42,500 nt of DNA from a virus. Its lineage: Duplodnaviria > Caudoviricetes. The notes beneath the pieces were generated by a model that saw only the letters and a list, made by a program, of their open reading frames with translations, did no database searches and was not told the DNA's origin. Of this stretch, positions 10,760 to 39,358 are shown piece after piece. The position numbers and the translations under genes were made by a program. Location: positions 1 to 42,500 of the IMG/VR virus record IMGVR_UViG_3300038415_000202; one strand, given 5' to 3'. The first letter of the stretch is position 1. Every line of letters starts with the position of its first letter.

Positions 10760-11473
10760 CTAATCCTTACAATACCTTATAAAGTCTGCCACATTTTCCT
10801 GTACCTTTACACTATTAGACTGGTAATTAAAGTCAAGTTCTAACTTTGAACACTTAGAGGAAAGACTTTTATTCTCTATACCTAATCTAATAGGTAAAGA
10901 GGATACTATACCTCTATAACTCTTATCTATTACTTCATTCCTAAGTACTCCATATATTTCTAAAAGTAATGACTTCTTCTTCTGTATATGTAAAGATTCC
11001 CTAGGACACACTAACTCTAAAGAGGAGGGTACCCCAAGTAGGTTAATCTTGTCAAAACTACCTAGTATTCTGGCACAACTCTCTATTTCTTCTTGTGAAG
11101 AGCCTTGTACTATACCTAAGTATTGGAATCCAGAACCCCTGCCATAATACTTTTCATCTGATGCTATCCAAGATTCAACCCACTCTAATGTTTTACTTTT
11201 ATTAAACTCAACGCAAGGTAGTACTATATGAGTAGGATTAACTACTAGACGAACTGTATGGTAGTCTTTATAACTATATCCTTTAGAACTTCTAGGTAAT
11301 GTAGGAGACCAGTCTAGTAGAACTAACTTCTTTTGGTTAAGAGAAGTTATCCTAGAATAGTATTCGAGATATAAGGAATTATTTACAGCTATCTCACCAT
11401 AGCAGTACTGAATATGAGAAGAGCTAGAATATTTGGAAAGTAGAGTAGTTGGTGAAATTATTCCTATTTGCAT
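10760..11473 (-). CDS. TGT/DpdA-like TIM-barrel paralogue, probably catalytically degenerate
   Basis: Colinear with 23463-24509: LLDWS / IVLPCV..KTL / GIVQGSSQEE / LGVP / GIVSSLPIRLG; two of three conserved Asp and HLLG are missing. Confidence 0.6.
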   Translation of the reverse strand: MQIGIISPTTLLSKYSSSSHIQYCYGEIAVNNSLYLEYYSRITSLNQKKLVLLDWSPTLPRSSKGYSYKDYHTVRLVVNPTHIVLPCVEFNKSKTLEWVESWIASDEKYYGRGSGFQYLGIVQGSSQEEIESCARILGSFDKINLLGVPSSLELVCPRESLHIQKKKSLLLEIYGVLRNEVIDKSYRGIVSSLPIRLGIENKSLSSKCSKLELDFNYQSNSVKVQENVADFIRYCKD

Positions 11474-12550: not shown

Positions 12551-12835
12551 TTACTTAATCCTTTTTATAACTACTATATTTACATCTTCGTGGTAGGACC
12601 TAAATTCCTTCTTAGTATCTTTGCTCCAATTTCTAATTGAGGAAAGTAAGGAGCACATCTTTCCGGGTCCTAGGCAAGAGTAATTAGGATGTACTACCTT
12701 TAAGGTATCACCAACTTTCATCTCACTTATTGCTTTCCTCTCTGGTGAGAAAAGTCTTTCCCTCTGTTTTGAAGATTTAGGGTCCCAAGTTGTCCTTACT
12801 GCTGCGAATTCCTTGTCACATTTGTGTAGTTTCAT
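12551..12835 (-). CDS. Hypothetical protein
   Basis: Start overlaps the queE stop. Confidence 0.6.
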   Translation of the reverse strand: MKLHKCDKEFAAVRTTWDPKSSKQRERLFSPERKAISEMKVGDTLKVVHPNYSCLGPGKMCSLLSSIRNWSKDTKKEFRSYHEDVNIVVIKRIK

Positions 12836-13515
12836 TAGACTCCTTTCTTATTTCCCCAAATAAACTTATGGATTTGAAGGCTGAAGGTTAAGTGCCTTTC
12901 TACACAGAAAGACGCAACCACAGGTAACCATTCATAAGACTTTCTATTAATCCTATCATTTAGGTCAAATTGGATACAGGGGGATATTAGAACTTGGGAA
13001 GTTCTATTCTTACACCTCACTAGAGTATTCTCGACGAATTGGATATCATACCTATCTTCAACAACAAATTTGACCTGATCCTTACTAGTTAAGAATAACC
13101 AGTCCTCAAGAGACTTTCCCGACATTCCAGATGATGGACACTTAATATCTGCATTCCAACTGTCAATCCTTTGTTTCCAAGAGGGAGGAAGATATGTTCC
13201 ATTTGTCTCTATAGTTATCTTCCACCCCTCTACATTTGACAAACCTATAAACTTCTCCAGATTACTGCTCTGGAGTAGAGGTTCCCCTCCAGTTATGCAA
13301 ATCCAATCACCTTTTCTTGTAGGTAGTGCTTTAAGTTTAGATACTACCTCAGTTACAGACAACTCTTCAAACTTAGAATCTGCTCTACTTGCGTAAGTAG
13401 TATCACACCATCTACAATTTATATTGCAGCCTTTCAGTCGGAGAAAGGACATAGGTTTACCTGCATATAATCCTTCCCCTTGTAAAGATCTGAATATTTC
13501 ACTTACCTGTAGCAT
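12835..13515 (-). CDS. queE: 7-carboxy-7-deazaguanine synthase (radical SAM)
   Basis: EIFRSLQGEG, FLRLKGCNINCRWCDT, ITGGEPLLQ, IETNGT, SLQIHK. Confidence 0.95.
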   Translation of the reverse strand: MLQVSEIFRSLQGEGLYAGKPMSFLRLKGCNINCRWCDTTYASRADSKFEELSVTEVVSKLKALPTRKGDWICITGGEPLLQSSNLEKFIGLSNVEGWKITIETNGTYLPPSWKQRIDSWNADIKCPSSGMSGKSLEDWLFLTSKDQVKFVVEDRYDIQFVENTLVRCKNRTSQVLISPCIQFDLNDRINRKSYEWLPVVASFCVERHLTFSLQIHKFIWGNKKGV

Positions 13516-14014: not shown

Positions 14015-14350
14015 TTATGCGTATGTTATCAACAGACCTACTAATACTATGACTATCATTAAAACTACTAGTATTCTAGTTCTTCGTGACCACTTTGGTA
14101 GAATAGAAGCTACTGCTCCTACTCCCGGAAGCTTATCTGCCCAAGATGCATAGTCGCCCTTTTTATGCCTCTGGGCCAACTTCTTCTCCATTTGTTCTTT
14201 AGTCAAGTATACTGATTGTACCTGACTTCTCATATGGTAGAAGTCGAACCAGAATAGTATCGGATTCCACTTTCTGTCGCATTTTATACAGTGAGGTTTA
14301 GTGAAAATGGAGTCTACTAATCCCCCGCAATGCTTATGAGTAAATGCCAT
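14015..14350 (-). CDS. Zn-ribbon protein with C-terminal TM anchor
   Basis: HxxC...CxxC; C-terminal hydrophobic helix; start overlaps the queD stop. Confidence 0.65.
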   Translation of the reverse strand: MAFTHKHCGGLVDSIFTKPHCIKCDRKWNPILFWFDFYHMRSQVQSVYLTKEQMEKKLAQRHKKGDYASWADKLPGVGAVASILPKWSRRTRILVVLMIVIVLVGLLITYA

Positions 14351-14730
14351 CAGCAGTCCTCCGGGTAAATAGTTGCTAGGCTATTTGGTGTTTCCCAAAC
14401 TTCCACTTTCGACACTTTTACAGTACCTAGTACTTCCTGTGCAAAGGTAAGTATATGCTTACCTATGTTCTCTGCAGTAGGAGGAAAGTCTTTAAGGTCA
14501 AAAGGAGATTTTTCATTAAGAACATAGTGGTCAAACTTATCTTCTAAAGGTACTATAACTAAGTTCTTAAGTAAGGAAAAATCCATTACCATACCTACTT
14601 TTGGTTGTGTCTTACCAGATACTGTTATTCTGATTGTCCAGGTGTGACCATGGAGACGGCTGCACTTACCAGGATAGTTTGGTAAAAAGTGTGCTGAGTC
14701 AAGAGTAAATGTTCTTGATACTTCTGCCAT
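14350..14730 (-). CDS. queD: 6-carboxy-5,6,7,8-tetrahydropterin synthase
   Basis: SAHFL, CSRLHGHTW, GMVMDF, FDHYVLN, PTAENI, VWET. Confidence 0.96.
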   Translation of the reverse strand: MAEVSRTFTLDSAHFLPNYPGKCSRLHGHTWTIRITVSGKTQPKVGMVMDFSLLKNLVIVPLEDKFDHYVLNEKSPFDLKDFPPTAENIGKHILTFAQEVLGTVKVSKVEVWETPNSLATIYPEDC

Positions 14731-20445: not shown

Positions 20446-20949
20446 TTACTGACCTACTTTAATTCCAAACCTTGCTAAATTAGCTTCTACAGGTTGCATT
20501 GCATCCCAACCTGGTCGTACTCTTGATGCCTTTACCTTAGTAAAGATACCTCCTCTAGGAGTATACTCAGATACTACTATAATGTAGAAGGGTTCTATAA
20601 GTTCATATAGAGAATTAACTACCATTGCAGGTATCTCTTCATGGAATACTTCAGCCTGTCTATAACTTGCGAAGTACATCTTAAGGGATTTAAGTTCAGG
20701 ATTCCATTTATCTGGGAAAAGGTCTACAGTTATCTTTGCATAGTCAGGCTGAGTAGGGTTAAAAGGACACAGAGAGGTAAACTCAGGTTCACAATGCTCT
20801 ACTTCAACCTGTCCTGGATATTCATTAGGTACTCTAATTAAGAGTTCTGGCTGAGGGGAAGAAGTGAAATTAAGTTTTAGAGCTTTTACCTTCTCATATA
20901 TTTCTGCCCGGGACATACTCTGATCACCCTTAGTTGATTTGTCTACCAT
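20446..20949 (-). CDS. queF: NADPH-dependent 7-cyano-7-deazaguanine (preQ0) reductase, type I
   Basis: EFTSLCP, QPDYA, QueF motif ELKSLKMYF, FHEE, RGGI. Confidence 0.9.
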   Translation of the reverse strand: MVDKSTKGDQSMSRAEIYEKVKALKLNFTSSPQPELLIRVPNEYPGQVEVEHCEPEFTSLCPFNPTQPDYAKITVDLFPDKWNPELKSLKMYFASYRQAEVFHEEIPAMVVNSLYELIEPFYIIVVSEYTPRGGIFTKVKASRVRPGWDAMQPVEANLARFGIKVGQ

Positions 20950-21109: not shown

Positions 21110-22039
21110 CTACTTTACTTCTTTACTTAATTTCTCTTGTAGAGCTTGAATCCTGAAGTATATTACCTTGGCATATAAGGCCAGGTCAAGGCATTCATTC
21201 ATTGCCTCTTCAAATGGGTCTGTCTTAAACTCTGGACCATGCTCCTTTGCACCTTTGGTCCACTTATTTTTCATTTCTAAAGTAAAAGTATCTATTCTAT
21301 TTATAGCCTCTTCTGGAGTAGAGGAGGATAGGGGAGGAAGAACATCTTCAGTAGATACCCTCTTCCATTTCCCCACAACAAAGTTGGAATAGTCACCTTT
21401 CCAGATATTCATGAAGGTATAAACCTTCTGGCCTTCTACTTCAAATCCTTCTCTGATACAGAAATCTCTTACAGGTGAATTTAAGGAAAACCAAATCCAA
21501 ACTTCATCGAAGTTTTCCTTCTGGTAATCAACCAGTGCCTTCATTGAACCTTTACCTGGGCATGCAATCTGTGACTTTAGAACCTTTAAAGGAGGCTGAA
21601 GGAAATTTGTTAATACTCCTTCATCTACTTGTTGAAGGTTCTTTAAATATGCCAAGGTCTTAGAGTCTTGTCTACTATTAGATACAGAATGTTCAGCTCC
21701 TCCAAGTTCACCTGTCTTTGGGTCTTCAACAACTACCCATTGGTCAATATACTTAGAAATAAGATTTGCATCCAAACCATAAGGAGGTACAACATCTTTA
21801 ACTGGAATAGATAATTCGGCTATTTCGGGTACGTCACCTAATTCTGCAGGACGAACTTTCCAATTTATCCATTCAGACTGGTTCACTTGTGATTCCTGGA
21901 AAGCTTTAACAGTATCTTTAGATTTAGAATGGAGGTCCCGATTAACTTTATTAATTTCCCTACCCAGTCTTCTATCATTTTTTGGCATAAAATCATCTTT
22001 CCTTTTAAAGACTTTACTTCCTATCCTCTGCAATTCCAT
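21110..22039 (-). CDS. GNAT-fold acyltransferase fused to a C-terminal MazG-like helical domain
   Basis: VRPAELGDVPEIAEL, PGKGSMKALVD (motif A), NSPVRDFCIREGF (motif B); C-terminal KGAKEHG...EEAMNECLDLALY. Confidence 0.65.
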   Translation of the reverse strand: MELQRIGSKVFKRKDDFMPKNDRRLGREINKVNRDLHSKSKDTVKAFQESQVNQSEWINWKVRPAELGDVPEIAELSIPVKDVVPPYGLDANLISKYIDQWVVVEDPKTGELGGAEHSVSNSRQDSKTLAYLKNLQQVDEGVLTNFLQPPLKVLKSQIACPGKGSMKALVDYQKENFDEVWIWFSLNSPVRDFCIREGFEVEGQKVYTFMNIWKGDYSNFVVGKWKRVSTEDVLPPLSSSTPEEAINRIDTFTLEMKNKWTKGAKEHGPEFKTDPFEEAMNECLDLALYAKVIYFRIQALQEKLSKEVK

Positions 22040-22856
22040 CTAGTGGTTCATAAGTCTTTCTAGTCAAGTTAGGCCATTTCATTTCCTCTTCAGTATAGGC
22101 TCCCGCCGATTTCATTGAAAGTGCCTTCCTTTGACATCCAGGACATCTATATATCTCTTTCTTAGATTTGAATCCACAAGTAGGATCCCAATAACAGTTA
22201 TAAGTTAACTTAAGATTAAGGTATTCATGTAACTCTTTGCCTACTTGCTCCTCTAATAAATCCCTGATAGGTAATAGTAGATTCATTTTACCTTCAGTTG
22301 CAACTGATAATACCATATCCATTAATGAATCAAATTCACCTGGTTTGCAACCTGGAGCCACATTCTCACTGTGAGAACCTATTGCAATATAATTGTAATC
22401 GTTTCCATGTATATAAGCCCAAGAAGCTGCTGCTCCTATAAGCATTACTTCTCTACCATTAAGATTTGCAATTCCGGGTTCTAGAGTAGGATTTAGAGAA
22501 ATGGTCGATTTTTCTACAGATTGTAAGAAGCCCTTCCAAATAAAAGGTGCCTTACTATAATACTTTAAGATAAGGTTATCTATACATCTTCTTACCGCCT
22601 GTTCCTCTAATCTTTTTGGATACTGTCCATAGTCAAAGAACAGAGGAGTTACATCAAATCCTACTGAACAAAGTCTTGCAATGCACAAAGTGGAGTCTAA
22701 ACCTCCAGTTGCCAGAACTATTACTTTAGGAGAATGAGAGTAAGCAGAAATGTAGTCTTGGGAAACTTCTTTTAAATGGTCTAGTTCTGTAGGAGGGACG
22801 CACAATCTCCTTACCTTTGGTTTTGAAGTAACTTTAACATTCTTCGGATTTTTCAC
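22014..22856 (-). CDS. Divergent QueC-like PP-loop ATPase (second copy)
   Basis: LATGGLDST, FDYGQ, GREVML, PGCKPGEF, TYNCY...CG...CPGCQRK. Confidence 0.85.
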   Translation of the reverse strand: MKNPKNVKVTSKPKVRRLCVPPTELDHLKEVSQDYISAYSHSPKVIVLATGGLDSTLCIARLCSVGFDVTPLFFDYGQYPKRLEEQAVRRCIDNLILKYYSKAPFIWKGFLQSVEKSTISLNPTLEPGIANLNGREVMLIGAAASWAYIHGNDYNYIAIGSHSENVAPGCKPGEFDSLMDMVLSVATEGKMNLLLPIRDLLEEQVGKELHEYLNLKLTYNCYWDPTCGFKSKKEIYRCPGCQRKALSMKSAGAYTEEEMKWPNLTRKTYEPLDGIAEDRK

Positions 22857-23462: not shown

Positions 23463-24509
23463 TTAAAGCAAAGTCTTTAGGAATGCTATATTCCAGACTG
23501 CCCTACCAACCTCAGTGTCATGATAATCTAGTACTTTAGCCAAAGGATTTACTTTCATCAGATTCAAGGTAGGGTCTTTCTTAAAAATGTATTCTGTAGG
23601 GTACCTAAGTCCATTTAGGCCTAAGAGTACTGGACCCCCTGTATCAAGTGAATCTATTCCATCTCTTGTAGGTTTATCAAAGAAGTAGAGATATAGTTCC
23701 TCTAAACTTGTTAAGCCTAGAAGGTGGATAGAATTGAAGTTTAACGTGTTCACTAAGTAATGAACTATGGCAGAACGAATCCTTGCCATCCTGTTCACAG
23801 GCTGCATTTTGCCTAAAATCAGGTCATAAGGTACTGCAAGTGAAGTGAAATTATACCCTCTTATTACATGGGCACAGTGTAATACTTCCTCTAAAGATGA
23901 ACCTTGGACTACAGGTAGTAAATCAGAACGGCCAAATGCTTCTGTTGCCTCTGGTAAGGCCTTAAGTGTCTTCTCTGAGTCTCCAAGAAAATCCTGTGCA
24001 ACCACTTTAGTAGGATTAATTAAGAAAGATGCTTGCCTCATCTCATCTAGAGAACAAGGAGTACCTTCTTCATTAACGCTCGTGTCCAAGTACTTGTATT
24101 TAGGATATGAAGTTATATAGGCAAAATTGCTGCTACCAGTAACTGGTCTCTTTAATACTTCTGCAGCTAGAGAGAAGTAGATATCCCCAAGAGGTAGTAT
24201 ATAATCTACTATAGAATCAGGACACTCTAACCCTAGTTTTATCTTTCTATGAAATTCACCTTGGTCATGAAGATAAGGAATTTTAAGTAGAGAGGCTTTC
24301 CTTGTAGGAGACTCTTTTACTGTTAGAGTAAAATCTGGGTGAAAAGTAGCTCCCCTGTCAGTGAAGTACCTTAGTCCCACACAACAAAGGTAATCTTGAG
24401 GATCAACTGGATTTCCCAGAATACTACAATTTTTCCTTCCAAGATTAAACTCTGTGCAATTTCCACATACCCACTTTTTAAGTGGAATTTCTTTTGAAAG
24501 TACTGTCAT
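23463..24509 (-). CDS. TGT/DpdA-like guanine transglycosylase (TIM barrel) with N-terminal Cys-rich extension
   Basis: LDTSVNEEG, VAQDFLGD..KT, LPVVQG, IHLLG, IDSLDT; directly downstream of folE. Confidence 0.75.
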   Translation of the reverse strand: MTVLSKEIPLKKWVCGNCTEFNLGRKNCSILGNPVDPQDYLCCVGLRYFTDRGATFHPDFTLTVKESPTRKASLLKIPYLHDQGEFHRKIKLGLECPDSIVDYILPLGDIYFSLAAEVLKRPVTGSSNFAYITSYPKYKYLDTSVNEEGTPCSLDEMRQASFLINPTKVVAQDFLGDSEKTLKALPEATEAFGRSDLLPVVQGSSLEEVLHCAHVIRGYNFTSLAVPYDLILGKMQPVNRMARIRSAIVHYLVNTLNFNSIHLLGLTSLEELYLYFFDKPTRDGIDSLDTGGPVLLGLNGLRYPTEYIFKKDPTLNLMKVNPLAKVLDYHDTEVGRAVWNIAFLKTLL

Positions 24510-24539: not shown

Positions 24540-25136
24540 TTATGACATTGACCGGTATTTCATAGATACTGCAAGCATAAACTCTTCTTTAACTGAAGAG
24601 CTGGTAAGGAACAGCCCCCTTAATGCAGTAGTATCTACAGTATTACTATGGGGTTGCTTTACTCCTCGGGAGAGCATGCAGGTATGAGAACCCACTACAT
24701 GTACCGCTGCACCTTTTGGTTTTAACCTTTTGAAAATATAGTCTACTAATTCTGTGGTAAAAGTTTCCTGCATTACAGGACGGTGTCCCATAATATCTGC
24801 CACTCTAGTATACTTAGATACTCCAGGTACTTTACCATCTGGAAGAATTCCGATTGTAACTAAATATTCGCATGGCAATAAATGATGTGGGCAGATTGCC
24901 CAAATTGAAGAAGGTCCTGCAACAATCATCTCTTGGCAATCATCATCAAAATCCTTGAAAACCCTACCTAGCTCCTTCTCAATCTTTTCGGGTGACCAAC
25001 AACCCAAGGTATACATTTCCATCAATCTCTCTACTGTTCCATTAAGTTGGTTAACACCTTTCCAATCCTTATAGAGAGATTGTAGTTCTCCCACAAGTAG
25101 TTTCGCCGCTGGTTCAAAATTGGGTTCGTTTGTCAT
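24540..25136 (-). CDS. folE: GTP cyclohydrolase I
   Basis: CPHHLLP, GVSKYTR, RPVMQE, HTCMLSRGV. Confidence 0.95.
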   Translation of the reverse strand: MTNEPNFEPAAKLLVGELQSLYKDWKGVNQLNGTVERLMEMYTLGCWSPEKIEKELGRVFKDFDDDCQEMIVAGPSSIWAICPHHLLPCEYLVTIGILPDGKVPGVSKYTRVADIMGHRPVMQETFTTELVDYIFKRLKPKGAAVHVVGSHTCMLSRGVKQPHSNTVDTTALRGLFLTSSSVKEEFMLAVSMKYRSMS

Positions 25137-25565: not shown

Positions 25566-26258
25566 TTAAGTAACTTTATACTTCAAAGGATCGGTTGCCC
25601 CAGCATCCGAAAATCCTTTCAGCCTAATTCGACAGGAGTCACATTCCCCACATGCACGACCTTGTTCATCTGGACCTTTATAGCACGACCAGGTCTTATC
25701 GTAAGGAACTCCAAGTTCAAGTCCAGTATAGATTATCTTTGCCTTGGTCATTTCAATCAGTGGAGTTATCAGACCAAATCCTCTTCCTGTCTCCACATAC
25801 TTCTTTGAGGCAAGATTCAATGACTTCTCCATGTGAGTAAGAAATTCCTGCCTACAATCAGGATAACCAGAGTAGTCAACTGCATTCATACCCGCATAGA
25901 TGAAATCTGCCTCAACTGTCTCTGCATAGGCAAACGCTAGTGCTAAGAATATACTATTCCTTTGAGGTACCCATGTTGCAGGAATAATTTTTGGATCTAC
26001 TCCTGAAGTAGGTATAGCAGAAGAGCCTACTAATGCAGATTCAACTAACCCCTTTAGTCCTACTGAAACTACTTGGAATGGAGAACAGAGTTCCTCTGCA
26101 ATCTTTCTGGCACATTGCAGCTCAAAAGAATGCTTCTGCCCATAGAGAAAGGACAGGGGGTAAATTTTTCCTTTGGCCCCCATTTCCTTGCGGGCGATGT
26201 AGGCAACGGTGGAACTGTCTAGTCCACCTGATAAAAGTACTACTGCGGATTTGCTCAT
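25566..26258 (-). CDS. queC: 7-cyano-7-deazaguanine synthase
   Basis: LSGGLDS, YGQKH, TWVPQRNSIFL, DYSGYPDCR, TWSCY, CGECDSCRIR. Confidence 0.97.
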   Translation of the reverse strand: MSKSAVVLLSGGLDSSTVAYIARKEMGAKGKIYPLSFLYGQKHSFELQCARKIAEELCSPFQVVSVGLKGLVESALVGSSAIPTSGVDPKIIPATWVPQRNSIFLALAFAYAETVEADFIYAGMNAVDYSGYPDCRQEFLTHMEKSLNLASKKYVETGRGFGLITPLIEMTKAKIIYTGLELGVPYDKTWSCYKGPDEQGRACGECDSCRIRLKGFSDAGATDPLKYKVT

Positions 26259-27327: not shown

Positions 27328-27344
27328 TTAATTCCAATCCTATT

Positions 27345-28573: not shown

Positions 28574-28578
28574 ATAAT

Positions 28579-28890: not shown

Positions 28891-28978
28891 AAGAAAGATC
28901 AGGATAACTCTAAGCATCACCGAAAAGTTATACCTTACCAAAATAAACTAAAATAACTACAATGTACTAAAATAGGAT

Positions 28979-29122
28979 TGCTGGTAAGGTAGCATTGCCT
29001 ACGCTGTTCCTGCGATACGGTCATCTACCTGTGGTCTTACTGGGATATATCCCCAGTTGTCCCGTAAATTACTTTTTCCCAACCTCCTGGCCTAGGAGTG
29101 CATTCCTCTCTGCCATACCAGC
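28979..29122 (-). ncRNA. tRNA-like RNA with expanded variable region and T arm (144 nt)
   Basis: Acceptor GCTGGTA/TACCAGC-A, TG linker, D arm GCA-GAGAGGAA-TGC, CTCCT-AGGCC-AGGAG arm, AGGTAG/CTACCT helix stacked on acceptor. Confidence 0.6.
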
Positions 29123-29140
29123 AATTCATAAAGGTTCTAG

Positions 29141-29262
29141 GTAGGACCGCCAGGGACTAAGGAACCCAGTTAAGATGGAACCAAGATTAGAAAACTCCGA
29201 AATGTCTTAACCTGCCTCTAAAAACAGAGACCTTAGTTGATTCCCTCGCACCAGTCCACTAC
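29141..29262 (-). ncRNA. Putative structured RNA (about 120 nt)
   Basis: Nested helices GTAG/CTAC, GACTG/CGGTC, AGGG/CCCT, ACTAAGG/CCTTAGT, TCTCTG/TAGAGG, GTTAAGA/TCTTAAC. Confidence 0.55.
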
Positions 29263-29265
29263 TTT

Positions 29266-29592
29266 TCAATGAATGTGGTCTAAGCCCACCGCCAAGAGAA
29301 CAGCCGCAAGAACTATGCCTCCTACTATCAAAGCATAGACATACCAAGGTATCTTCTGGTACCAAGACTTCTTCTCTGGTTCAAACTTACCCTTAGAGGG
29401 CTCATCTGAAGGTAAATCCTCTCCCACATGATTAGGAGAACTACCAAAACCAGAGTCAAGAATCTCTATAGGTTCATGCTGTCTAGGTGTAGGATTTACC
29501 ACTTTCTCTTCCTTTTTGCCCTCATCCTTTGGAGCCTCATCAACTTGAGGAATCCTTCTAAGTTTAGGCTCCTCTGATGAAGGCTCTACTGT
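29266..29592 (-). CDS. -1 frame extension (low-complexity linker plus C-terminal TM anchor) of the upstream protein
   Basis: Frame is open across the upstream stop: TVEPSSEEPKLRRIPQVDEAPK...IPWYVYALIVGGIVLAAVLLAVGLDHIH. Confidence 0.65.
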   Translation of the reverse strand, partial: TVEPSSEEPKLRRIPQVDEAPKDEGKKEEKVVNPTPRQHEPIEILDSGFGSSPNHVGEDLPSDEPSKGKFEPEKKSWYQKIPWYVYALIVGGIVLAAVLLAVGLDHIH

Positions 29593-29598
29593 TTTGGG
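29532..29598 (-). promoter_or_regulatory. Putative programmed -1 ribosomal frameshift signal
   Basis: In-frame C_CCA_AAA heptamer (29598-29592), 5-nt spacer, hairpin GAGCCT(T)CATCA...TGATGAGGCTC (29586-29532). Confidence 0.65.
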
Positions 29599-30029
29599 CT
29601 TGCCTTTTGGCCAGGAGTAATTGGAGTCTGGACTCCAGCTACTACCTTCTGGGCAACCATATCCACATCAGGATTACCTTTAGATGATGTAGGTCCTACT
29701 CCAGACTGCTCTCCCCCGACAACCTTTCTGGAAATCATGTCGACTTCGGGAATTCTTGCAGAAGTGTTTGTAGGATTACCACTTGGTACCCCGAAATGCG
29801 TCTCCTCGGTAAACATTCTGTACATACCATTGGCATTTACCTTAGCGCCATACAGACTTTTACCAAGTTCACTCTGAAGGAGTTGCTCATCGGAGAAAGG
29901 AATCGCATCAGGTATGGAAATCATACCTATGTTCATTATTCCCTTTCCATCTTGGACACCAGATACCTGTGCAAACTGGCATCCACCATACTGGGTGCGA
30001 ACTGTTGCCGCACCTGACTTGTCTGACAT
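29586..30029 (-). CDS. Hypothetical protein with internal P(E/D)VDM..KVV repeat
   Basis: AAAGGA RBS before MSDKSG at 30029; repeats PEVDMISRKVVGG / PDVDMVAQKVVAG. Confidence 0.7.
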   Translation of the reverse strand: MSDKSGAATVRTQYGGCQFAQVSGVQDGKGIMNIGMISIPDAIPFSDEQLLQSELGKSLYGAKVNANGMYRMFTEETHFGVPSGNPTNTSARIPEVDMISRKVVGGEQSGVGPTSSKGNPDVDMVAQKVVAGVQTPITPGQKASPKQ

Positions 30030-30149
30030 TATAGACATCCTTTCCGCCGAGGTGTCAAGTGTAAAAGAGGTCAAGCCCTCTTATACCTTTATAGGACACT
30101 CTCGAACTTTTAAATTTTATAGAGGGTGTTCCTGCCCTCTGAAAACACT

Positions 30150-30440
30150 CTAACTTCTTTTACTTGGTGCTTGCCATCTTGCAAGTTGAGGAGATAACTC
30201 AAGAGTGAAGATATCCCTAATCTCTGAAACCATTCGTAATTGGGAAGGTTTTAAGAGTACCTGCTTTCTCTCCACACTCTTATCCCATATTGCTAACTTG
30301 TTCTTAAATTGGTGGATTATACTACCTGCAACCTTCTTTTCTCTATCTAAGGTAGTATTATCCTTAATTATTTGCAGGTAAGGAATTAACTCCTCAAGAT
30401 CTTTCCTAGTCATTACTACCAGCTGCTCCCCAGTAGACAT
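30150..30440 (-). CDS. Hypothetical protein
   Basis: GAGGT RBS; operon context. Confidence 0.65.
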   Translation of the reverse strand: MSTGEQLVVMTRKDLEELIPYLQIIKDNTTLDREKKVAGSIIHQFKNKLAIWDKSVERKQVLLKPSQLRMVSEIRDIFTLELSPQLARWQAPSKRS

Positions 30441-30468
30441 TTGACTACCTCTTTCTTTCTCTAAATTC

Positions 30469-30696
30469 TTATTTATGAAAGTTAATGGTCTTCTGTTTCT
30501 TAACTACTTGGTAAATGCAATCCCTATCTACTCCTAAACAGCATTTATCTTGGATAAGTCCTGCATTTAGTTGACATCCACAAGGATTAGTACATTTTAA
30601 GGTAGATAAGACAGACTCTTTAAGTCTATCTTTTACCTTCCTTTCAGTAGGAGTAAACTTTGCTACCCTCCAACCATCTACAAATACTACTCTCAT
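30469..30696 (-). CDS. Cys-containing hypothetical protein
   Basis: AAGGA RBS; operon context. Confidence 0.6.
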   Translation of the reverse strand: MRVVFVDGWRVAKFTPTERKVKDRLKESVLSTLKCTNPCGCQLNAGLIQDKCCLGVDRDCIYQVVKKQKTINFHK

Positions 30697-30715
30697 ATAT
30701 TCCTTAAGTCTTTAC

Positions 30716-30880
30716 TGGAAGTACTAAGGATTTGAGCAACATCACACCAGATTTAACTGAAAGTTCTTAAGTTGCCGTTGTCACCTTAGATAGCAGGCAG
30801 TCCCACCTTGCCGTTTTCCCATAGTAATTTAGCCTGCCTATTCCCCAATTCTTAGCGTCTACCTTTTCCGCCATACTTCC
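30716..30880 (-). ncRNA. tRNA(Leu)-like RNA with insert in the T loop and remodelled centre (165 nt)
   Basis: Acceptor GGAAGTA/TACTTCC-A, D arm TGGCGGAAAAGGTAGACGC, T stem CTAAGG/CCTTAG with loop T[insert]TCAAAT. Confidence 0.7.
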
Positions 30881-30896
30881 AATTAACTAAAATTTT

Positions 30897-30999
30897 TGGT
30901 GAGGGTTGTCGGAGTTCTACCGACGCCTCTAGTTCCACCTAACTAGTATTTCAATGGTGTACTTCCCTGGTGTTCTTAGACAGTTAAAACTATACCTTC
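30897..30999 (-). ncRNA. Atypical tRNA-like RNA with encoded CCA (103 nt)
   Basis: T arm GTCGG-TAGAACT-CCGAC, AACCCTC-A-CCA end, D stem GTTTT/AGAAC, CTAGTT/AACTAG arm; imperfect acceptor stem and an extra segment after the D arm. Confidence 0.6.
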
Positions 31000-31009
31000 A
31001 TAATACTGT

Positions 31010-31402
31010 CTATGGTATTAATTCCTTTGGTAAAGATTCATCCCAGATTGTGAAAATTAACTTAGGTTCAACTGTTTCATCTATTGAAATCTTTCCAGAT
31101 ACATTCCTGAAATACTTGTCATCTACCCCTAAGCCCTCTTTTAATGAGTCATTTACCACTTTATAGAGATTATCTAGATCAGGGTACCTCTCATCTGGAA
31201 ATACTGCTGATATCTGGATAAATACTAAAGGTTTAAGTTGTCCCTTAAAAGGTTCTGCTTTCTGTGCTAAGACTGACATCCAAACTTTAACTATGGGGTG
31301 ATAGGAATTAGTTCTAACTCCACCTTTACCTCTTATCCAGCAAGAATTCAAGGAAAGTACCCCGCCGATGTAAGGCATTTCTATTACGATTAACTTGTCC
31401 AT
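31010..31402 (-). CDS. rusA: RusA-like Holliday junction resolvase
   Basis: SLN, PDLDNLYKVVNDSL, DDK; start moved to MDKLIVIE. Confidence 0.85.
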   Translation of the reverse strand: MDKLIVIEMPYIGGVLSLNSCWIRGKGGVRTNSYHPIVKVWMSVLAQKAEPFKGQLKPLVFIQISAVFPDERYPDLDNLYKVVNDSLKEGLGVDDKYFRNVSGKISIDETVEPKLIFTIWDESLPKELIP

Positions 31403-31417
31403 ACTAATCAAATAAAG

Positions 31418-31474
31418 AAGGGGAGTGGGAGGGCAACCCACGATGCGCATCCGTCTTTACGACGTAACCCCCTC
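31418..31474 (-). ncRNA. Miniature tRNA-like cloverleaf (57 nt)
   Basis: GAGGGGG/TCCCCTT 7 bp, CGTC-GTAAA-GACG, GATGCGCATC, GTGGG-TTGCCCT-CCCAC. Confidence 0.45.
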
Positions 31475-31484
31475 TTTAAGGACT

Positions 31485-32003
31485 TTACTCGTCCTTGTCG
31501 CCTGCAAGCTCTTGGCCCCAGGTACCACCCGGGCGGAACTGGGAAAGGCGATTGCTATCGGCATAACCACCGGTTCCCTTCTGTATCCGGATTGATACTG
31601 CCCACTGCTGACCTTCCATCTGGGCCTTGGTCGGCAGTTTGAAATTAGCGACTTTAATATCCTTATCTGACTTGTAACCCAGATCCGGTGTGGCAAGTAG
31701 AATCGGGATAAGGCGCCCTTTGGTATTCACATTCTTGAGGTTGATGTCCTCAAAAATCTTCCTACCCTTGAACTCTTCGGGTTCGAGAACTGTTACTTCG
31801 GCATGAACCTTGGGCTCACCGGAATTCTTGCCGATTGCGTTCTCATCCCATACCGTGCAGATAACCAAGGCAGGTGTCCTGTCCGGAATTGCCTCAAATA
31901 CTACTGCATCGGACATGTCTACTGAGACTTGCTTACTGTTCTTGTCTGCCAATGTGAACTCTCTTTCTGCAACGCCTAGTTGCAATGGGAGACTATCTGT
32001 CAT
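31485..32003 (-). CDS. Putative ssDNA-binding protein (DUF669-like)
   Basis: FEAIP, SGEPK, EFKGRKIFE, Y.DSNRL, acidic tail; downstream of Sak; true start may be the TTG at LADKNS. Confidence 0.7.
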   Translation of the reverse strand: MTDSLPLQLGVAEREFTLADKNSKQVSVDMSDAVVFEAIPDRTPALVICTVWDENAIGKNSGEPKVHAEVTVLEPEEFKGRKIFEDINLKNVNTKGRLIPILLATPDLGYKSDKDIKVANFKLPTKAQMEGQQWAVSIRIQKGTGGYADSNRLSQFRPGGTWGQELAGDKDE

Positions 32004-32142
32004 CCCACTATCTTTAAGGTTTGCCCTCCCCTGCCCAATCTACATTAAACAATAATAGGTCTACTCCCAGAAAAGGAAGAAGTAAAGTAATAACTGTAGC
32101 CCAGATAAAGAAAACTGTTAGGTTAGTTAACTTGTCATTCAT

Positions 32143-32874
32143 CTAAGAAACCTTTGGTAATTTACCAATCAAGGCAAATATATCTAGTTTATCCAGGTCT
32201 GCTAACTTCTTACCTGAAGTTTTCTCAATCCATTCTATTGCCTGTTCCCTTGTCCAATTCTGATTAATTACTTTGGCATTCTCAAGGAAACTTTTTAACT
32301 TAATATCTTCATCTGATAGGCCTTCAAATTCATCTTCTCTACGACCATAGATATCTCTAGTAAAGCCCATTAAAGAGAAACACTTCTTCATCCCATCTGT
32401 AGAAGCAGACTTCAAGTCATCTGCAAGGTCAATTACTGTTCCATCTTTCTTCTTCTTTAAATCAGAACCACCCCATTGTTCTTTAACTACTGTAAAAGAA
32501 GGAATATCAACTTCTTCAATAGAACCTTCAGAACTGGTTCTCTTACAATGGCGTTCAGGAATATAGACTTCAATTTGAACTAGGCAAGAAATCTGACTAA
32601 TCTTTTCATCTACTCTATATTCCTTTATCCTCATTGACCAACCATTCAATCCAAAGATTGCGTTGGCCTGTTCAATAAACCACCAACCAGGCACATAATC
32701 CTGTTGACTTCCACCTCTACCTGGTTTCTTGAAAACAACATCTTTAGGTGTCTTACCAGTTACTAAATAACCTAAAGATTCAGAACGGGCTTTAAGAAGT
32801 ATATTCTGATGTTCCTCTAAGTCAACTGATAAGGTTGTTGGAGGTAAAAGTGAAAAAGAATTAGTCGTAGTCAT
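32143..32874 (-). CDS. Rad52/Rad22-family (Sak) single-strand annealing protein
   Basis: PGRGG...YV, ANAIFGLNGWS, KSASTDGMKKCFSLMG. Confidence 0.88.
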   Translation of the reverse strand: MTTTNSFSLLPPTTLSVDLEEHQNILLKARSESLGYLVTGKTPKDVVFKKPGRGGSQQDYVPGWWFIEQANAIFGLNGWSMRIKEYRVDEKISQISCLVQIEVYIPERHCKRTSSEGSIEEVDIPSFTVVKEQWGGSDLKKKKDGTVIDLADDLKSASTDGMKKCFSLMGFTRDIYGRREDEFEGLSDEDIKLKSFLENAKVINQNWTREQAIEWIEKTSGKKLADLDKLDIFALIGKLPKVS

Positions 32875-33196
32875 ACTTTCTTCGCCTGTCCTCAGAGCAC
32901 TTGGTTTTGAATTCCGATACTTTCCTTCCTTTATCTCTTATCTGATAAGGACGTAGAGGAATACCTAATTCATCTTTAAGTTTGTGTTCCTTAATAAACC
33001 TTACTAATGCAGCATCTATCGCATCATAGCGACGAACTACATCTGGGATTCTGTACTCACCTTGTAAAGTTTGACCTTTCCATTCAAACCTGATGGAAAT
33101 GTCCCAAAATAAAGGTCTCTTCTCTTCTTCTTTCTCTAAAACTGAAGAGCTAGAAGAATGTGAACCACTTGAGGCATTGGCTGGCTTCTTACTCAT
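32861..33196 (-). CDS. Hypothetical protein
   Basis: First sizeable ORF downstream of the leftward promoter. Confidence 0.65.
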   Translation of the reverse strand: MSKKPANASSGSHSSSSSVLEKEEEKRPLFWDISIRFEWKGQTLQGEYRIPDVVRRYDAIDAALVRFIKEHKLKDELGIPLRPYQIRDKGRKVSEFKTKCSEDRRRKYDYD

Positions 33197-33417
33197 TTTT
33201 AACTTCTGTTCCCTTTCTGGTTAGGTAAATAATTTTTACCTTTCCTTAATAACTGTATTTCTTGAGACTTTACATAAAGGGAACAAATCCGCTGATTCCT
33301 GTCGTCGATTTGCCTGTTTGGAAAACTTTCTGCCCGCAAGACAAGTTGCAAAATAAATTTGTTTGCGGGTGCATTACATAATTGTTTATTATAACATATT
33401 GTGTGCGTTGTGCGTGT

Positions 33418-33446
33418 ATCATATCATATTTACGTTTAATTGTCAA
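33418..33446 (-). promoter_or_regulatory. Sigma70-type promoter, leftward
   Basis: TTGACA (33446-33441), 17 nt, TATGAT (33423-33418) with extended -10 TG. Confidence 0.85.
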
Positions 33447-33655
33447 TATTATACATCATTTTCAGTTGCCAGGAAATGTGGTTTAAAATCCAAAGTAAGA
33501 CTTTTCTTAAATCTTTTGTTTCTAAAATTTGTGGTGGTAAAAATACTTTTGGAAAATTCTTGGAAAGGTGCAAGCAAAAGATTTTGTTTTTAATAATTTG
33601 TGGATGTGGTTTGTTTCCTACAATTTTCAATTTGTAAAATATGTCATAAAATGTA

Positions 33656-33684
33656 TTGACATTACAATATAAATATGATACAAT
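33656..33684 (+). promoter_or_regulatory. Sigma70-type promoter, rightward
   Basis: TTGACA (33656-33661), 17 nt, TACAAT (33679-33684) with extended -10 TG. Confidence 0.88.
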
Positions 33685-33750
33685 TAATAATGCGATTAAT
33701 ATGGTTGGAATTACGTTTTTCGATGTTAAAAAAAAGAATGAGGAGTTAAA

Positions 33751-34083
33751 GTGACTAAGAAAGTAGTTACTGCAATTTTAGTTTCAGGACCTGGAGATGA
33801 AGATTCAGGAAATTGTGATTCCCAATCTCGATACCTTAAATCCGAAAAAGGTAAGGAAGCAGTTAAAAGGTATAAGAAGTCTGAAAAAGGGCAGAAGGTA
33901 ATCGAGAAAATTAACAAGTCAGAGCGTCATAAGATATCTGCCCAGAAATACCGCAACAGTCCAAAAGGTCAAGAGAAACTTCAGGAAATAAGTGAGAAGA
34001 ACAGGAAGATGCGGGAAATAGATAAGTGGTTAAAAGAGCATGAAGGGAAGACCATTGAAGACTACAAGAAGGAAAAGGAATAA
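33751..34083 (+). CDS. Basic protein with YxxSEKG-type repeats, possibly DNA-binding
   Basis: GAGGAG RBS, GTG start; RYLKSEKGK / RYKKSEKGQ / KYRNSPKGQ. Confidence 0.7.
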   Translation: MTKKVVTAILVSGPGDEDSGNCDSQSRYLKSEKGKEAVKRYKKSEKGQKVIEKINKSERHKISAQKYRNSPKGQEKLQEISEKNRKMREIDKWLKEHEGKTIEDYKKEKE

Positions 34084-34565
34084 TGGATAGACCAATAATT
34101 CCTGAACAAACTGCACTCTGGATGTCATCCTCAAAGGGCAGGCATATTCCCATAAGTGAAATGAATGACCGTCACCTCCTAGGTGCAATCAAGAATGTCC
34201 AGACTTATGCCAAGTGGCAGTGGGAAGATGATGAAAACCGTGACCCACAAGGTAACTGGCATGACCGCTTGCCTATGAATACATATATTCCTTTAGTACA
34301 AGAGTGTATGAGTCGCTTTCTGGATGTACCAAATGAGGACGACGAACTATTCCTACTTGAACTTGCAGCAAAACCTAGAGTCGAACCAGTAGACTGCTGT
34401 TGCAACTGCAAACATAAAGAAAATGGACTTGAAATAGATAAAGGTAGAAATGGTAACAAAACCTACTTAATGATATGTGGTAATCCAGGTTCTGAAAAGG
34501 CAACAGAAACAGTATTCTGTCCAGAGAAATGTGAGAAATGGGAGAAGAAAGGACTAAATGTATGA
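34083..34565 (+). CDS. Hypothetical phage protein with C-terminal Cys cluster
   Basis: W...KGRHIPISEMNDRHL motif; CCNC...C...C. Confidence 0.7.
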   Translation: MDRPIIPEQTALWMSSSKGRHIPISEMNDRHLLGAIKNVQTYAKWQWEDDENRDPQGNWHDRLPMNTYIPLVQECMSRFLDVPNEDDELFLLELAAKPRVEPVDCCCNCKHKENGLEIDKGRNGNKTYLMICGNPGSEKATETVFCPEKCEKWEKKGLNV

Positions 34566-34876
34566 GAGATAAGAAAGCAATTTTAATAAATACAGATGGT
34601 AAAGTTAAAGAGTTAGGTCTCAATCCTCCATACAGAGATTTGGTATCTCCTAAGAAACTCACATTAGAGCAGTTACAGAAACTAGTTGGAGGTTATATTG
34701 AAGTTATTAGGCAGGTACCTTATGAAGGTAGACTAGCTACCATGATAGTAGATGAGGAAGGCTTACTAAAGAATAAACCAGTAAATTTTACAGCTACCCA
34801 TTTATACCGGTGCACCAAGTTTGGTGCTCCTAGTATCTTTGGAGATGTAGTACTACTTTTAGGATGGAGAATGTAA
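34538..34876 (+). CDS. DUF3846-like protein; start probably at MRDKK
   Basis: LEQLQKLVGGYIE, IVDEEGLLKNKPVN..AT, IFGDVVL. Confidence 0.8.
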   Translation: MGEERTKCMRDKKAILINTDGKVKELGLNPPYRDLVSPKKLTLEQLQKLVGGYIEVIRQVPYEGRLATMIVDEEGLLKNKPVNFTATHLYRCTKFGAPSIFGDVVLLLGWRM

Positions 34877-34899
34877 GAAAATAAAAGAAGGAGAAGAAA

Positions 34900-35151
34900 A
34901 TGGACGAAGGAACATTTATAGTATTGGCAAGTGAAACTGGAAGCCTGTTCGATGCAAAGGTAGTTGCATATGGGACAGATGAGGAAGTGCATGAATTCTT
35001 TAAAGGATATGACCTTAGTAAGAACTTCGTGGTACTTCCAGTCGATGGCTCTTACAGTGTAAGAGAATCGGTAGATAATCTTGAAGACGTGGGTCTTACA
35101 GTAGATGATGAAGGACATACTGTAATAGACCCTGATTTTGGACAGGACTAA
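34900..35151 (+). CDS. Small acidic protein
   Basis: AGGAG RBS; Asp/Glu rich. Confidence 0.65.
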   Translation: MDEGTFIVLASETGSLFDAKVVAYGTDEEVHEFFKGYDLSKNFVVLPVDGSYSVRESVDNLEDVGLTVDDEGHTVIDPDFGQD

Positions 35152-35165
35152 ACTAGGAATCTTAA

Positions 35166-36665
35166 ATGCAAGATAATAGCCTAGTCCATGATACTGGATT
35201 ACTTCCCCAGGGTTTCAACTCAAAGATGAAATTACCAGAAGACCTTTTCGAGTATCAAAGGGAAGACTTAACCCGCTTACTAAATTCCAGCGAAGGATTC
35301 CTCAACTTAAGTGAGATGGGTACTGGTAAGACTCCTGTCGCAATAGGACTTGCTAAATTGGGAGACTTCAAGAAAACCCTTATAGTATGTCCTAAGACAC
35401 TCCGTTGGGAATGGTCAAGGCAAATTCAAGATTGGTATGGAATAGAACCTACTGTAGGAAAAGGTTCCTTCCACAGATTGGATGAACTTGCTGACCAATA
35501 TGAAGGAAATTCTCCTGATAATCCTTTCTTCATAGTTAACTATGAGACTTTCAGGAAAGAAGACCATAGGATGCTCTTGAATATCATCCACTTCGACTTG
35601 GTAATTCTTGATGAAGCTCATAGAGTAAGGAACCCTGAAACAAGTATGTTTAGGGGACTATCTGAAACCTTAAGTAAGTACAGCGGAGCAAAAGTACTTG
35701 CTATGACAGGTTCTCCTGTTGTAAATAAACCTGATGACTTATACAGTCTTCTCTGTTTAACTAGACCAGAACAATTTCCAAGGAAGGAAAGGAATTCTTT
35801 CATACTTGAATACTGCTATACTATTGCAAGAAGGAATAGGTTCAAGGTTATTGGGGTAAGGAAGAAGGAGCAACTCCAGGCAATGATAAAATCCTTCTCT
35901 ATCCAGAGGAGGAAGAAAGAAGTTCTTCCATTCCTTCCTGACAAATACTACAGAATAGTTAACCTTGAAATGTCAGAGGAACAGAAGAAGATTTATGATA
36001 AGGCAAGAGACCAGTTGATGATAGAACTGGATAATGGAGAAACTATCAGGTCAGCAGGGATACTTGCACTTCTTATAAGATTAAGGCAACTTAGTCTAGA
36101 CCCAAGAATTTTGGGATTAAGTAAAACTCCTAGCATTAAATCTGAATTCCTTAGGGAATTAATTGAAGACCTAGGAGATGAGAAACTTGTTGTATTCTCA
36201 ACCTTCGCAGATTATATAGATATACTAGAGTCTGACTTTAAAGATATTCCACATATTACTATAACAGGGAAGACTCCTAGTGAACAAAGGATGGCAAATG
36301 TTAAAAGGTTTCAAGAAGATGACAACTGTCGCCTCGCTTTTGGCACTATGCAAACTATGGGTGAGGGAATTACTCTTACGGCAGCAAGTAATGTAGTTCT
36401 TACGGACAGATGGTGGTCACCTACTGTAAATGAACAGGCAATAGATAGAACACATAGAATAGGTCAAACTAATAAAGTTCAAGTTATATTACCTGTTGCA
36501 AAAGATAGTATAGACCAGAGTATGGATAAAATACTTCAAGGTAAGAACCAATTTGTCAAAGATGTACTTGGAACAGGTAATGACTATGAAGTAATGGAAG
36601 CAGTACTAGATGACATCAAAGATAGCTTCCGAAGTAATAGACATGCCTGGGAGAGGGAATTCTAG
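35166..36665 (+). CDS. SNF2-family (SF2) helicase/ATPase
   Basis: EMGTGKT, LIVCP, ILDEAH, MTGSPVVN, VVFS, GEGITLTAA, QAIDRTHRIGQ. Confidence 0.95.
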   Translation: MQDNSLVHDTGLLPQGFNSKMKLPEDLFEYQREDLTRLLNSSEGFLNLSEMGTGKTPVAIGLAKLGDFKKTLIVCPKTLRWEWSRQIQDWYGIEPTVGKGSFHRLDELADQYEGNSPDNPFFIVNYETFRKEDHRMLLNIIHFDLVILDEAHRVRNPETSMFRGLSETLSKYSGAKVLAMTGSPVVNKPDDLYSLLCLTRPEQFPRKERNSFILEYCYTIARRNRFKVIGVRKKEQLQAMIKSFSIQRRKKEVLPFLPDKYYRIVNLEMSEEQKKIYDKARDQLMIELDNGETIRSAGILALLIRLRQLSLDPRILGLSKTPSIKSEFLRELIEDLGDEKLVVFSTFADYIDILESDFKDIPHITITGKTPSEQRMANVKRFQEDDNCRLAFGTMQTMGEGITLTAASNVVLTDRWWSPTVNEQAIDRTHRIGQTNKVQVILPVAKDSIDQSMDKILQGKNQFVKDVLGTGNDYEVMEAVLDDIKDSFRSNRHAWEREF

Positions 36666-36968
36666 ATGATAGAGATATGTAACCTTAGAAAAACCAAACA
36701 AAGTGAGCCTTGGGACTTCAAAGTTGATAGAACTACCCCTTTAGGTAACACATTTATTATGAGTGGAGAATCAGAAAGAGAATGGTCCTGTAACTCATAT
36801 GAAAGGGGCTTTAATAACCTAATCCAACATAAGGAACCTATGGAGTACTTGAACAAACTAATTGAGACTTATAAAGAATACGGAAAACTTAGACTATTTT
36901 GCTGGTGTGCTCCAAAAAGGTGTCATTCTGAAACTATAAAGAGGTATATTGAGGAAACAGTTAAATGA
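36666..36968 (+). CDS. DUF4326-like protein
   Basis: VDRTTPLGNTF...LFCWCAPKRCH. Confidence 0.8.
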   Translation: MIEICNLRKTKQSEPWDFKVDRTTPLGNTFIMSGESEREWSCNSYERGFNNLIQHKEPMEYLNKLIETYKEYGKLRLFCWCAPKRCHSETIKRYIEETVK

Positions 36969-37380
36969 AAGACAAGAAGCCTTAGAGATGGCACGAAAAC
37001 ACGTCAAGGGCGGCGGCGTAGTTTGCCCATACTGTGGGGGACAGGATATTGAGGGCGGGCCGGTAGAGACCGGCAACGAAGAAGCAACGCAGGAGATGAA
37101 GTGTCTAGCCTGTCGTGAGAATTGGATGGACTCCTATAAGCTGAACGGTATCTATGATGAAAATGCCGAATGGGTAGAGCCTACGCCGGAGCCAAAGAAG
37201 GTCTATATCGATGTCGATGGCGGGAACATCACCGGCGTCTACGGGCCAGCCGGTTTGGAGTGCCTTATCATAGACGCTGATAACGGTGCTGTTGACGAGG
37301 ATGTGCGAACCGAGAATGAGCGCAAACAGGCCGAGGAAGAGGCCGCAATAGATAGCGGCGAGATCGTGGAGCTATATTAA
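36949..37380 (+). CDS. Zn-ribbon protein with acidic C-terminal domain
   Basis: CPYCG...CLAC; GC-rich codon usage. Confidence 0.7.
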   Translation: MRKQLNERQEALEMARKHVKGGGVVCPYCGGQDIEGGPVETGNEEATQEMKCLACRENWMDSYKLNGIYDENAEWVEPTPEPKKVYIDVDGGNITGVYGPAGLECLIIDADNGAVDEDVRTENERKQAEEEAAIDSGEIVELY

Positions 37381-37396
37381 AGGGAGGTTAGAAATT

Positions 37397-38311
37397 ATGA
37401 CGATGAGAATTGTATCACACACTAATCCCGATGGCACAGTGGTAAAAATCACCGTGGCCGAATCTGCGACCATAGGTGCAAAGAGCAGCATCGGTGAAGG
37501 GAGCAGCATCGGTGAAGGGAGCAGCATCGGTGAAGGGAGCAGCATCGGTGAAGGGAGCAGCATCGGTGCAAAGAGCAGCATCGGTGAATGGAGCAGCATC
37601 GGTGAAGGGAGCCGCATCGGTGCAAAGAGCAGCATCGGTGAATGGAGCAGCATCGGTGAATGGAGCCGCATCGGTGAAGGGAGCAGCATCGGTGCAAAGA
37701 GCAGCATCGGTGAATGGAGCAGCATCGGTGAAGGGAGCAGCATCGGTGAAGGGAGCAGCATCGGTGAAGGGAGCCGCATCGGTGAAGGGAGCCGCATCGG
37801 TGAAGGGAGCCGCATCGGTGCAAAGAGCCGCATCGGTGAAGGGAGCAGCATCGGTGAATGGAGCCGCATCGGTGAAGGGAGCCGCATCGGTGCAAAGAGC
37901 CGCATCGGTGAAGGGAGCCACATCGGTGCAAAGAGCCGCATCGGTGAAGGGAGCAGCATCGGTGAAGGGAGCAGCATCGGTGAAGGGAGCAGCATCGGTG
38001 AAGGGAGCAGCATCGGTGCAAAGAGCAGCATCGGTGAATGGAGCAGCATCCTGCCCAATTCAAAATTTCCTGATGACAAAAATCCTCTTACTGGCCTCGT
38101 ATTCTCCTATGGTGCATTCGTCTGCACTATCAACCAAAAGGGCGATGAGCTGATCGCCTGCATCGGATGTGGACAGCATCCAGTCGAATACGATCTCGAA
38201 ATCAGTATCGACGAGGCCGAAAAGAAGGGCTTACCGCGCTGGGCATACGACAATTATCAGTGGTTTCTACGCTCGGTGCTAGAGAGGGCAAAGGGAATGA
38301 AGGAGGTATAA
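37397..38311 (+). CDS. Left-handed beta-helix (hexapeptide repeat) protein
   Basis: GGGAGG RBS; 32 x IG(EG/AK/EW)S(S/R/H); C-terminal domain with IGCGQH. Confidence 0.85.
   Translation: MTMRIVSHTNPDGTVVKITVAESATIGAKSSIGEGSSIGEGSSIGEGSSIGEGSSIGAKSSIGEWSSIGEGSRIGAKSSIGEWSSIGEWSRIGEGSSIGAKSSIGEWSSIGEGSSIGEGSSIGEGSRIGEGSRIGEGSRIGAKSRIGEGSSIGEWSRIGEGSRIGAKSRIGEGSHIGAKSRIGEGSSIGEGSSIGEGSSIGEGSSIGAKSSIGEWSSILPNSKFPDDKNPLTGLVFSYGAFVCTINQKGDELIACIGCGQHPVEYDLEISIDEAEKKGLPRWAYDNYQWFLRSVLERAKGMKEV
37472..38047 (+). repeat. 32 tandem 18-bp repeats (consensus ATCGGTGAAGGGAGCAGC)
   Basis: Directly visible; near-identical units without spacers. Confidence 0.95.
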
Positions 38312-38312
38312 C

Positions 38313-39345: not shown

Positions 39346-39358
39346 AAGGAGTATTAAA

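Follow-up and report, generated by a model that had tools for sequence, protein, structure and literature searches.

AG/CT-free promoters in a virus with a deazaguanine gene set: a possible imprint of context-specific DNA modification

What keeps one dinucleotide out of the promoters of a virus that otherwise uses it freely? The window (the whole 42,500-nt stretch of viral DNA analysed here) holds 14 AG/CT at 11281-11340 and none in two stretches of 120 and 117 nt (windows 1 and 2, Table 1); these counts, given in a preliminary description of the locus, are exact, and each stretch does cover a TTGACA-17-(-10) promoter (P1 and P2). They are the longest AG/CT-free runs in the 42,500 nt, and the expected number of such runs is 2e-5 and 4e-5, respectively. 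The third-longest run, overlooked in that description, holds a third TTGACA-17-TG promoter (P3).

Table 1. Promoters, AG/CT-free stretches and deazaguanine-related genes
Feature	Coordinates	Strand	Remarks
Window 1, AG/CT-free	33345..33464	-	~-53 to +67 of leftward promoter P1
Predicted promoter P1	33418..33446	-	TTGACA-17-TG-TATGAT; consensus match; faces leftward recombination/que/dpdA/polymerase arm
Window 2, AG/CT-free	33619..33735	+	~-72 to +45 of rightward promoter P2
Predicted promoter P2	33656..33684	+	TTGACA-17-TG-TACAAT
Third window, around P3	41549..41668	+	72-nt run (41597-41668) and 48-nt run (41549-41596), one AG between
Predicted promoter P3	41600..41628	+	TTGACA-17-TG-TATCAT; free zone ~-38 to +34
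TGT-like paralogue, second	10760..11473	-	Probability 98%; D289-equivalent aspartate absent
queE-like radical SAM	12835..13515	-	
queD	14350..14730	-	
queF (preQ1 synthase QueF-II)	20446..20949	-	TIGR03139 101.8 bits, cut-off 86.9
GNAT-fold protein (residues ~54-230)	21110..22039	-	Conserved as queF neighbour in five relatives; candidate tailoring enzyme
Second, divergent QueC-family protein	22014..22856	-	Under QueC cut-off; candidate tailoring enzyme
DpdA-like transglycosylase, TGT fold	23463..24509	-	Invariant D142, D173, Q202-G203, H262, D289
folE	24540..25136	-	
queC	25566..26258	-	Over NCBIfam cut-off

P1 and P2 are divergent, and each faces one gene arm. All three predicted promoters have the housekeeping-sigma layout: a -35 box, a 17-nt spacer and an extended -10 box upstream of co-oriented genes. 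Four sigma-70 matches of 11/12 occur in 26000-42500. Three of them combine TTGACA with a 17-nt spacer and an extended TG, and all three lie within AG/CT-free runs; the fourth (-26946, TTTACA-18-TATAAT, within the ORF at 26290-27075) has 16 AG/CT. Relative to transcription starts placed about 7 nt past the -10 box, the AG/CT-free windows fit the predicted polymerase footprint plus the early transcribed DNA; window 2 ends at the ribosome-binding site preceding the ORF at 33751. Direct and inverted ACAATCA repeats at P3 are a possible operator. The same or variant sequence covers the windows in contigs from other runs (X2, X3, X4), which rules out an assembly artefact.

The depletion is significant against a composition-matched null, as the preliminary description had anticipated, and the depleted runs overlap predicted promoters. 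In 100,000 shuffles for each of the three windows (picked on the trait itself), observed against expected AG/CT counts were 0 vs 11.6 (p<1e-5), 0 vs 9.4 (p=2e-5) and 1 vs 13.2 (p<1e-5). Pooled, the three hold 1 AG/CT against 34.2 expected from local composition, in keeping with the earlier view that this is not simple AT richness; GA/TC stands at 26/34, AA/TT at 86/95 and GG/CC at 6/13. AG/CT is the sole dinucleotide class lost. Over the whole window it is in excess (O/E 1.275), equally with GG/CC (1.273), and CG is at 0.37. The whole window also avoids GATC (0.30), and the CG avoidance is absent from the promoter windows, where CG is at expected levels.

The trait is specific to these promoters. 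In 95-nt windows anchored on the -35 box, P1-P3 carry 2, 1 and 1 AG/CT vs 8-10 expected; among 145 distinct control phage promoters out of 134 viral loci, AG/CT O/E over 95 nt is 0.91, none of the 145 has one or fewer and one has 2. Of 16 intergenic segments in the window, 13 are above expectation, one is level and two are below, both of the latter being the promoter-bearing ones. A local depletion scan of 29 genomes and loci, corrected for local composition and for each genome's own dinucleotide rate, ranks this virus first (-14.9), and six unmodified control phages reach -11.0 at most. That control maximum comes from T5 and likewise concerns AG/CT; T5's 18 predicted promoters carry 5-18 AG/CT. 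T5 9751-9850 (L318), near the end of the terminal repeat, has a single AG/CT in 100 nt. Without the genome-rate correction GA/TC ranked first in phages iggy and CAjan, yet unmodified PA73 scored -12.9, so the corrected scan was relied on. A palindrome test was dropped: 6-mers bearing AG/CT are avoided less than others (0.82 vs 0.71) here and in 6/7 dpdA relatives, and the signal is weak, G005 and phi47:1 having the same pattern. In L019/L020 a GG/CC-free run of 151 nt turned out to be AT-rich DNA and took no rank after composition control. Another non-coding segment of the window, 366-520, is AG/CT-poor (7 vs 16) and CG-rich, lies beside a hairpin at ~331-356 and has no strong promoter match; it is possibly a weak promoter or an origin.

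Avoidance persists in relatives whose promoter sequence differs. In L010 and L011 (Rad52 identity 91%) the sequence past the leftward -35 box has been replaced, with an inserted stretch downstream of that box in L010, and AG/CT-free runs of 71 and 51 nt are still present; in L012 (Rad52 identity 39%) they measure 65 and 53 nt. Contigs of run X4 have at least 23 substitutions in the two windows; of those listed, 15 from one low-depth contig, none yields AG/CT, and 33% of possible single changes would. L033, which carries dpdA, queF, the GNAT gene and a second QueC, has 7 AG/CT vs 28 expected at three promoters (p=2e-6). The windows are a real, selected feature. A Rad52 single-sequence scan gave no matches.

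A survey of 20 family loci, 14 of them yielding 25 distinct promoters, gives a bimodal picture. Scored for AGH/DCT, a pattern chosen post hoc after the data had been seen, 12/25 promoters have at most one in 75 nt vs 3/146 controls (the window, L010, L011, L012, L033, L050 and L021; L034 has 2), and 12/25 have a control-like 3-10 (G001, G002, G003, G004, L026 and L023). For plain AG/CT, 9/25 have at most one. In 16 promoters picked as AG-poor, observed/expected counts are AGA 10/49, AGC 4/16, AGT 16/48 and AGG 15/17. AG as the avoided word, proposed earlier, is borne out by the AG/CT depletion at promoters but is probably too broad: since relatives tolerate AGG/CCT and not AGA, AGC or AGT, the word is likely AGH.

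The distribution of avoidance narrows the earlier proposal further. Avoiders do not form one clade (single clade rejected, p-AU 0.0002), and L050 is sister to the non-avoiding G004 in both the DpdA and Rad52 trees, so that avoidance follows neither. L033 avoids AG with a dpdA of its own, as the proposal would have it, but G001, G002, G003, G004 and L026 all carry dpdA, folE, queC and queF and keep AG (the cluster of L023 lies beyond its contig). The core pathway is therefore insufficient to force the windows, and DpdA alone does not suffice, even though promoter specificity and survival of sequence replacement agree with promoters being kept AG-free. A second QueC stands near queF in 3/3 avoiders with a visible cluster (the window, L033, L050) and within the cluster in 0/5 non-avoiders (none seen in G001, G003, G004 or L026; G002 has one elsewhere), an association that is suggestive only. 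The further claim that AG is enriched for protection is unsupported, since GA is depleted genome-wide in iggy (O/E 0.80) and CAjan (0.87), L033 avoids AG at its promoters and has an AG O/E of 1.0, and GG is equally enriched. Most relatives with dpdA have an AG O/E of 1.25-1.55, whether or not they avoid AG at promoters, and in the window the enrichment extends to codon junctions.

The que/dpdA route named in the preliminary description is present. The preQ0 route (folE, queD, queE, queC) is complete in the window, and QueF points to preQ1 in the available parts of the relevant papers (PMC10516641, PMC6884629). These genes lie in the leftward arm, the operon facing P1, with the second QueC-family gene and the GNAT-fold gene between the dpdA-like gene and queF. 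In the 21110-22039 product, the part C-terminal to the GNAT-fold domain looks MazG-like by eye, and similar fusions occur in Atlas clusters. A NADAR domain gene (25133-25555) sits between folE and queC.

The DpdA-like enzyme belongs to the TGT fold. D142, D173 and D289 are invariant in 17 homologues, and we take them to correspond to TGT D102, D156 and D280. The top Foldseek matches listed are all TGT (E ~1e-6, TM ~0.5); there is no Pfam match, no match in a sequence search against the PDB and none by tblastn on 50,697 phage records, and viral contigs, GTDB genomes and GenBank phages yielded no close DpdA relatives. Against the single CAjan DpdA sequence it is not alignable (hhalign probability 0.7%, E 0.08). 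A Cys-rich N-terminal extension (residues 1-88) is common to ten homologues and confined to its own clade. DpdA1 enzymes (CAjan, iggy) target GA or GGC; the AG/CT-free windows hold GA/TC at 26 vs 34 expected, including one in every -35 box. The second TGT-like paralogue is predicted from its sequence to be catalytically inactive; it is kept in G001, G002, G003 and L020 and could be a non-catalytic partner or a DNA-binding protein.

Taken together, a context-specific modification at AG/CT probably explains the windows (we put this at about 0.75). The more specific version, to which we give slightly better than even odds, is that the DpdA-like enzyme swaps the G of AG(H) for a bulky preQ1-derived 7-deazaguanine, which is kept out of the polymerase footprint. 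FolE, QueD, QueE, QueC and QueF would make preQ1, DpdA would place it at the majority of AG(H) sites once the DNA has been replicated, and the GNAT-fold protein, the second QueC or both may enlarge the inserted base; further acylation of preQ1 is our own suggestion. With a bulky base at AG, initiation by host RNA polymerase would be impeded. Incoming DNA would be modified and the first promoters would have to fire before unmodified copies exist, so that the span from about -50 to +35, or a longer one, would be cleared of AG on either strand. In the -35 box the G sits in a TGA context and would stay unmodified, so that consensus TTGACA can be kept. Relatives that keep AG may carry a less bulky base, have another target or infect a host with higher tolerance. 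According to the accessible text of PMC4838386, the polymerases of E. coli and B. subtilis hardly transcribe DNA that carries bulkier 7-substituted deazaguanines, the block probably falling at initiation, and small ones are tolerated; this fits avoidance that is confined to promoters and, among lineages, to those whose base is larger.

The main rival to a DpdA-made base, an explanation to which we give a minor share, keeps the same logic and assigns it to another enzyme, encoded by the host or by genome sequence beyond the contig, that acts on the A of AG or on either base of CT. The sequence does not reveal which one of the four AG/CT bases carries the modification; the contig is a fragment (relatives span 54-110 kb), so that such an enzyme may lie outside it; and avoidance is decoupled from the DpdA tree. 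Set against this, no DNA methyltransferase or thymidine-hypermodification family occurs in the window's 58 proteins or in 69 proteins selected from G002 and G003 (the methyl- and glycosyltransferases present in G002 are generic), and a complete deazaguanine route sits in the operon facing P1.

Explanations by DNA mechanics or protein binding, with no modification at all (pyrimidine-purine bending or melting steps, operator repeats, escape from a host nucleoid protein), seem unlikely. They would draw on TG/CA at 1.8x and CG at 1.9x expected in the windows, on the repeats at P3 and on the AG/CT-poor window in T5. However, the TG and CG excess follows from the ban on AG/CT, other purine-purine steps hardly change (AA 0.9, GA 0.76) and TA is not raised. 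The 145 control promoters lack the trait, the replaced promoter sequences have no common repeat, and AGG is tolerated (15 vs 17) where AGA, AGC and AGT are not.

Less probable still is a host defence acting on AG/CT where promoter DNA is opened, by marking or cutting it (an ADP-ribosylating toxin would be one example), with the NADAR of the cluster as antidote. NADAR acts against guanine ADP-ribosylation, the position of its gene within the cluster would suit such a role, and patchy avoidance would fit dependence on the host. The windows (-70 to +67) nevertheless reach far past the melted region, replication forks would expose every AG, and NADAR was found in one relative only, G002, which keeps AG. 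Chance in AT-rich intergenic DNA (the windows are ~75% AT) is refuted by the composition-matched nulls and the independent relatives, and its probability is very small.

If promoter clearing reflects modification, the windows suggest a genuine cost to transcription, met by keeping 70-120 nt round promoters clear. Three short promoters and a single gene cluster would be enough to test the question of sigma block, and the windows offer a sequence-only prediction of the targets of DNA-modifying enzymes; mapped DpdA motifs in the cited papers so far come from two phages. A broader generalisation is tentative and rather doubtful as a whole: motif-hypermodifying viruses would purge their motif from promoters and other protein-contact DNA, leaving targets readable from sequence, and here a new DpdA-like family would have a 5'-A-defined target, AGH, and make an undescribed acylated preQ1 base by way of the GNAT-fold protein and second QueC, in a virus family that is perhaps tailless.

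The virus family may be non-tailed: no terminase, portal or HK97 capsid match appeared in the scanned proteins (69 by Pfam, 33 by PHROG). A Zot/M13-gI-like ATPase is conserved in relatives (G002:C1:86704-87372, G003:C1:48750-49448). Two DNA polymerases are conserved in the family, a UDG-exonuclease-PolA fusion (8296-10758) and a PF03175 B-type polymerase (868-2553). Hexapeptide-repeat genes lie on tandem DNA repeats (37397-38311, 42099-42497, 1-140), and about 1 kb at 28261-29265 has no ORF of 80 aa and is 44% GC, a possible non-coding RNA.

Phages with mapped motifs provide the nearest comparison. In the sections available, iggy is described as modifying nearly all GA with a strict motif (PMC10484667), and the motifs mapped in CAjan are GA and GGC (PMC7544227). 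An analogue of the depletion exists in iggy, where two non-coding stretches have 5 GA/TC each vs 31 from composition (~25 after rate correction). They lie in L227 (iggy 59949-60628) and L226:3179-3286 and are absent from the available text of PMC10484667; Pa-X belongs to the same genus, repeats them and does not count as an independent case. For iggy the corrected scan places GA/TC second (-12.0), after an AC/GT stretch in coding DNA, and the GA-poor stretches are not known promoters. GA/TC leads the scan in Pa-X and TIVP-H6 and also, at control level, in phi47:1 and 033B. In CAjan the GA/TC signal vanishes at 100 nt after rate correction; at 200 nt it ranks first without exceeding control level. 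The positive control thus amounts to one good case, iggy, among two mapped phages. None of 14 queC-bearing phages has promoter-centred depletion, seven of them lacking a strong sigma-70 match; BSP7 (10 promoters) and Dp-1 (9) have no depleted dinucleotide.

Published work touches on the transcriptional question at one point: in the portions available, Hutinet et al. 2019 (PMC6884629) raise the concern that sigma factors might be blocked by deazaguanines, and discount it on the ground that sigma sites are AT-rich. The word 'promoter' is absent from the main texts of PMC7544227, PMC10484667, PMC10516641 and PMC6884629 (supplements apart), and the available parts of PMC8056088, PMC12707154, PMC11780129 and PMC10710427 add nothing on promoters cleared of a modification motif. 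In the literature covered, mostly open papers without supplements, there is no report of DpdA-motif-cleared promoters, of an AG target or of acetylated preQ1 in DNA. The templates of PMC4838386, as described in its accessible text, carried synthetic groups at every G, whereas natural preQ1 derivatives at one context are proposed here.

Viruses with preQ1-derived bases, namely dPreQ1 (Dp-1), mdPreQ1 and fdPreQ1 (available parts of PMC6884629 and PMC10516641), resemble this one in combining QueF, DpdA and an adjoining tailoring enzyme, but the candidate tailoring enzymes here are a GNAT fold and a QueC paralogue rather than DpdM or the formyltransferase DpdN. In Dp-1 about 1.7% of G is modified, and the predicted promoters are undepleted. 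With the DpdA systems of CAjan and iggy this virus shares folE/queD/queE/queC and a TGT-fold transglycosylase, the near-complete modification of a dinucleotide context (here predicted) and, with iggy, non-coding DNA poor in its own motif. It differs in that its predicted context, AG(H), is set by the 5' base and theirs by the base that follows G on its 3' side; among the DpdA motifs mapped in the cited papers (CAjan, iggy), a 5'-A context has no precedent. This virus also adds QueF, the GNAT-fold protein, a second QueC and an inactive-looking paralogue; its motif is enriched genome-wide where theirs is depleted, and its consensus TTGACA promoters are kept.
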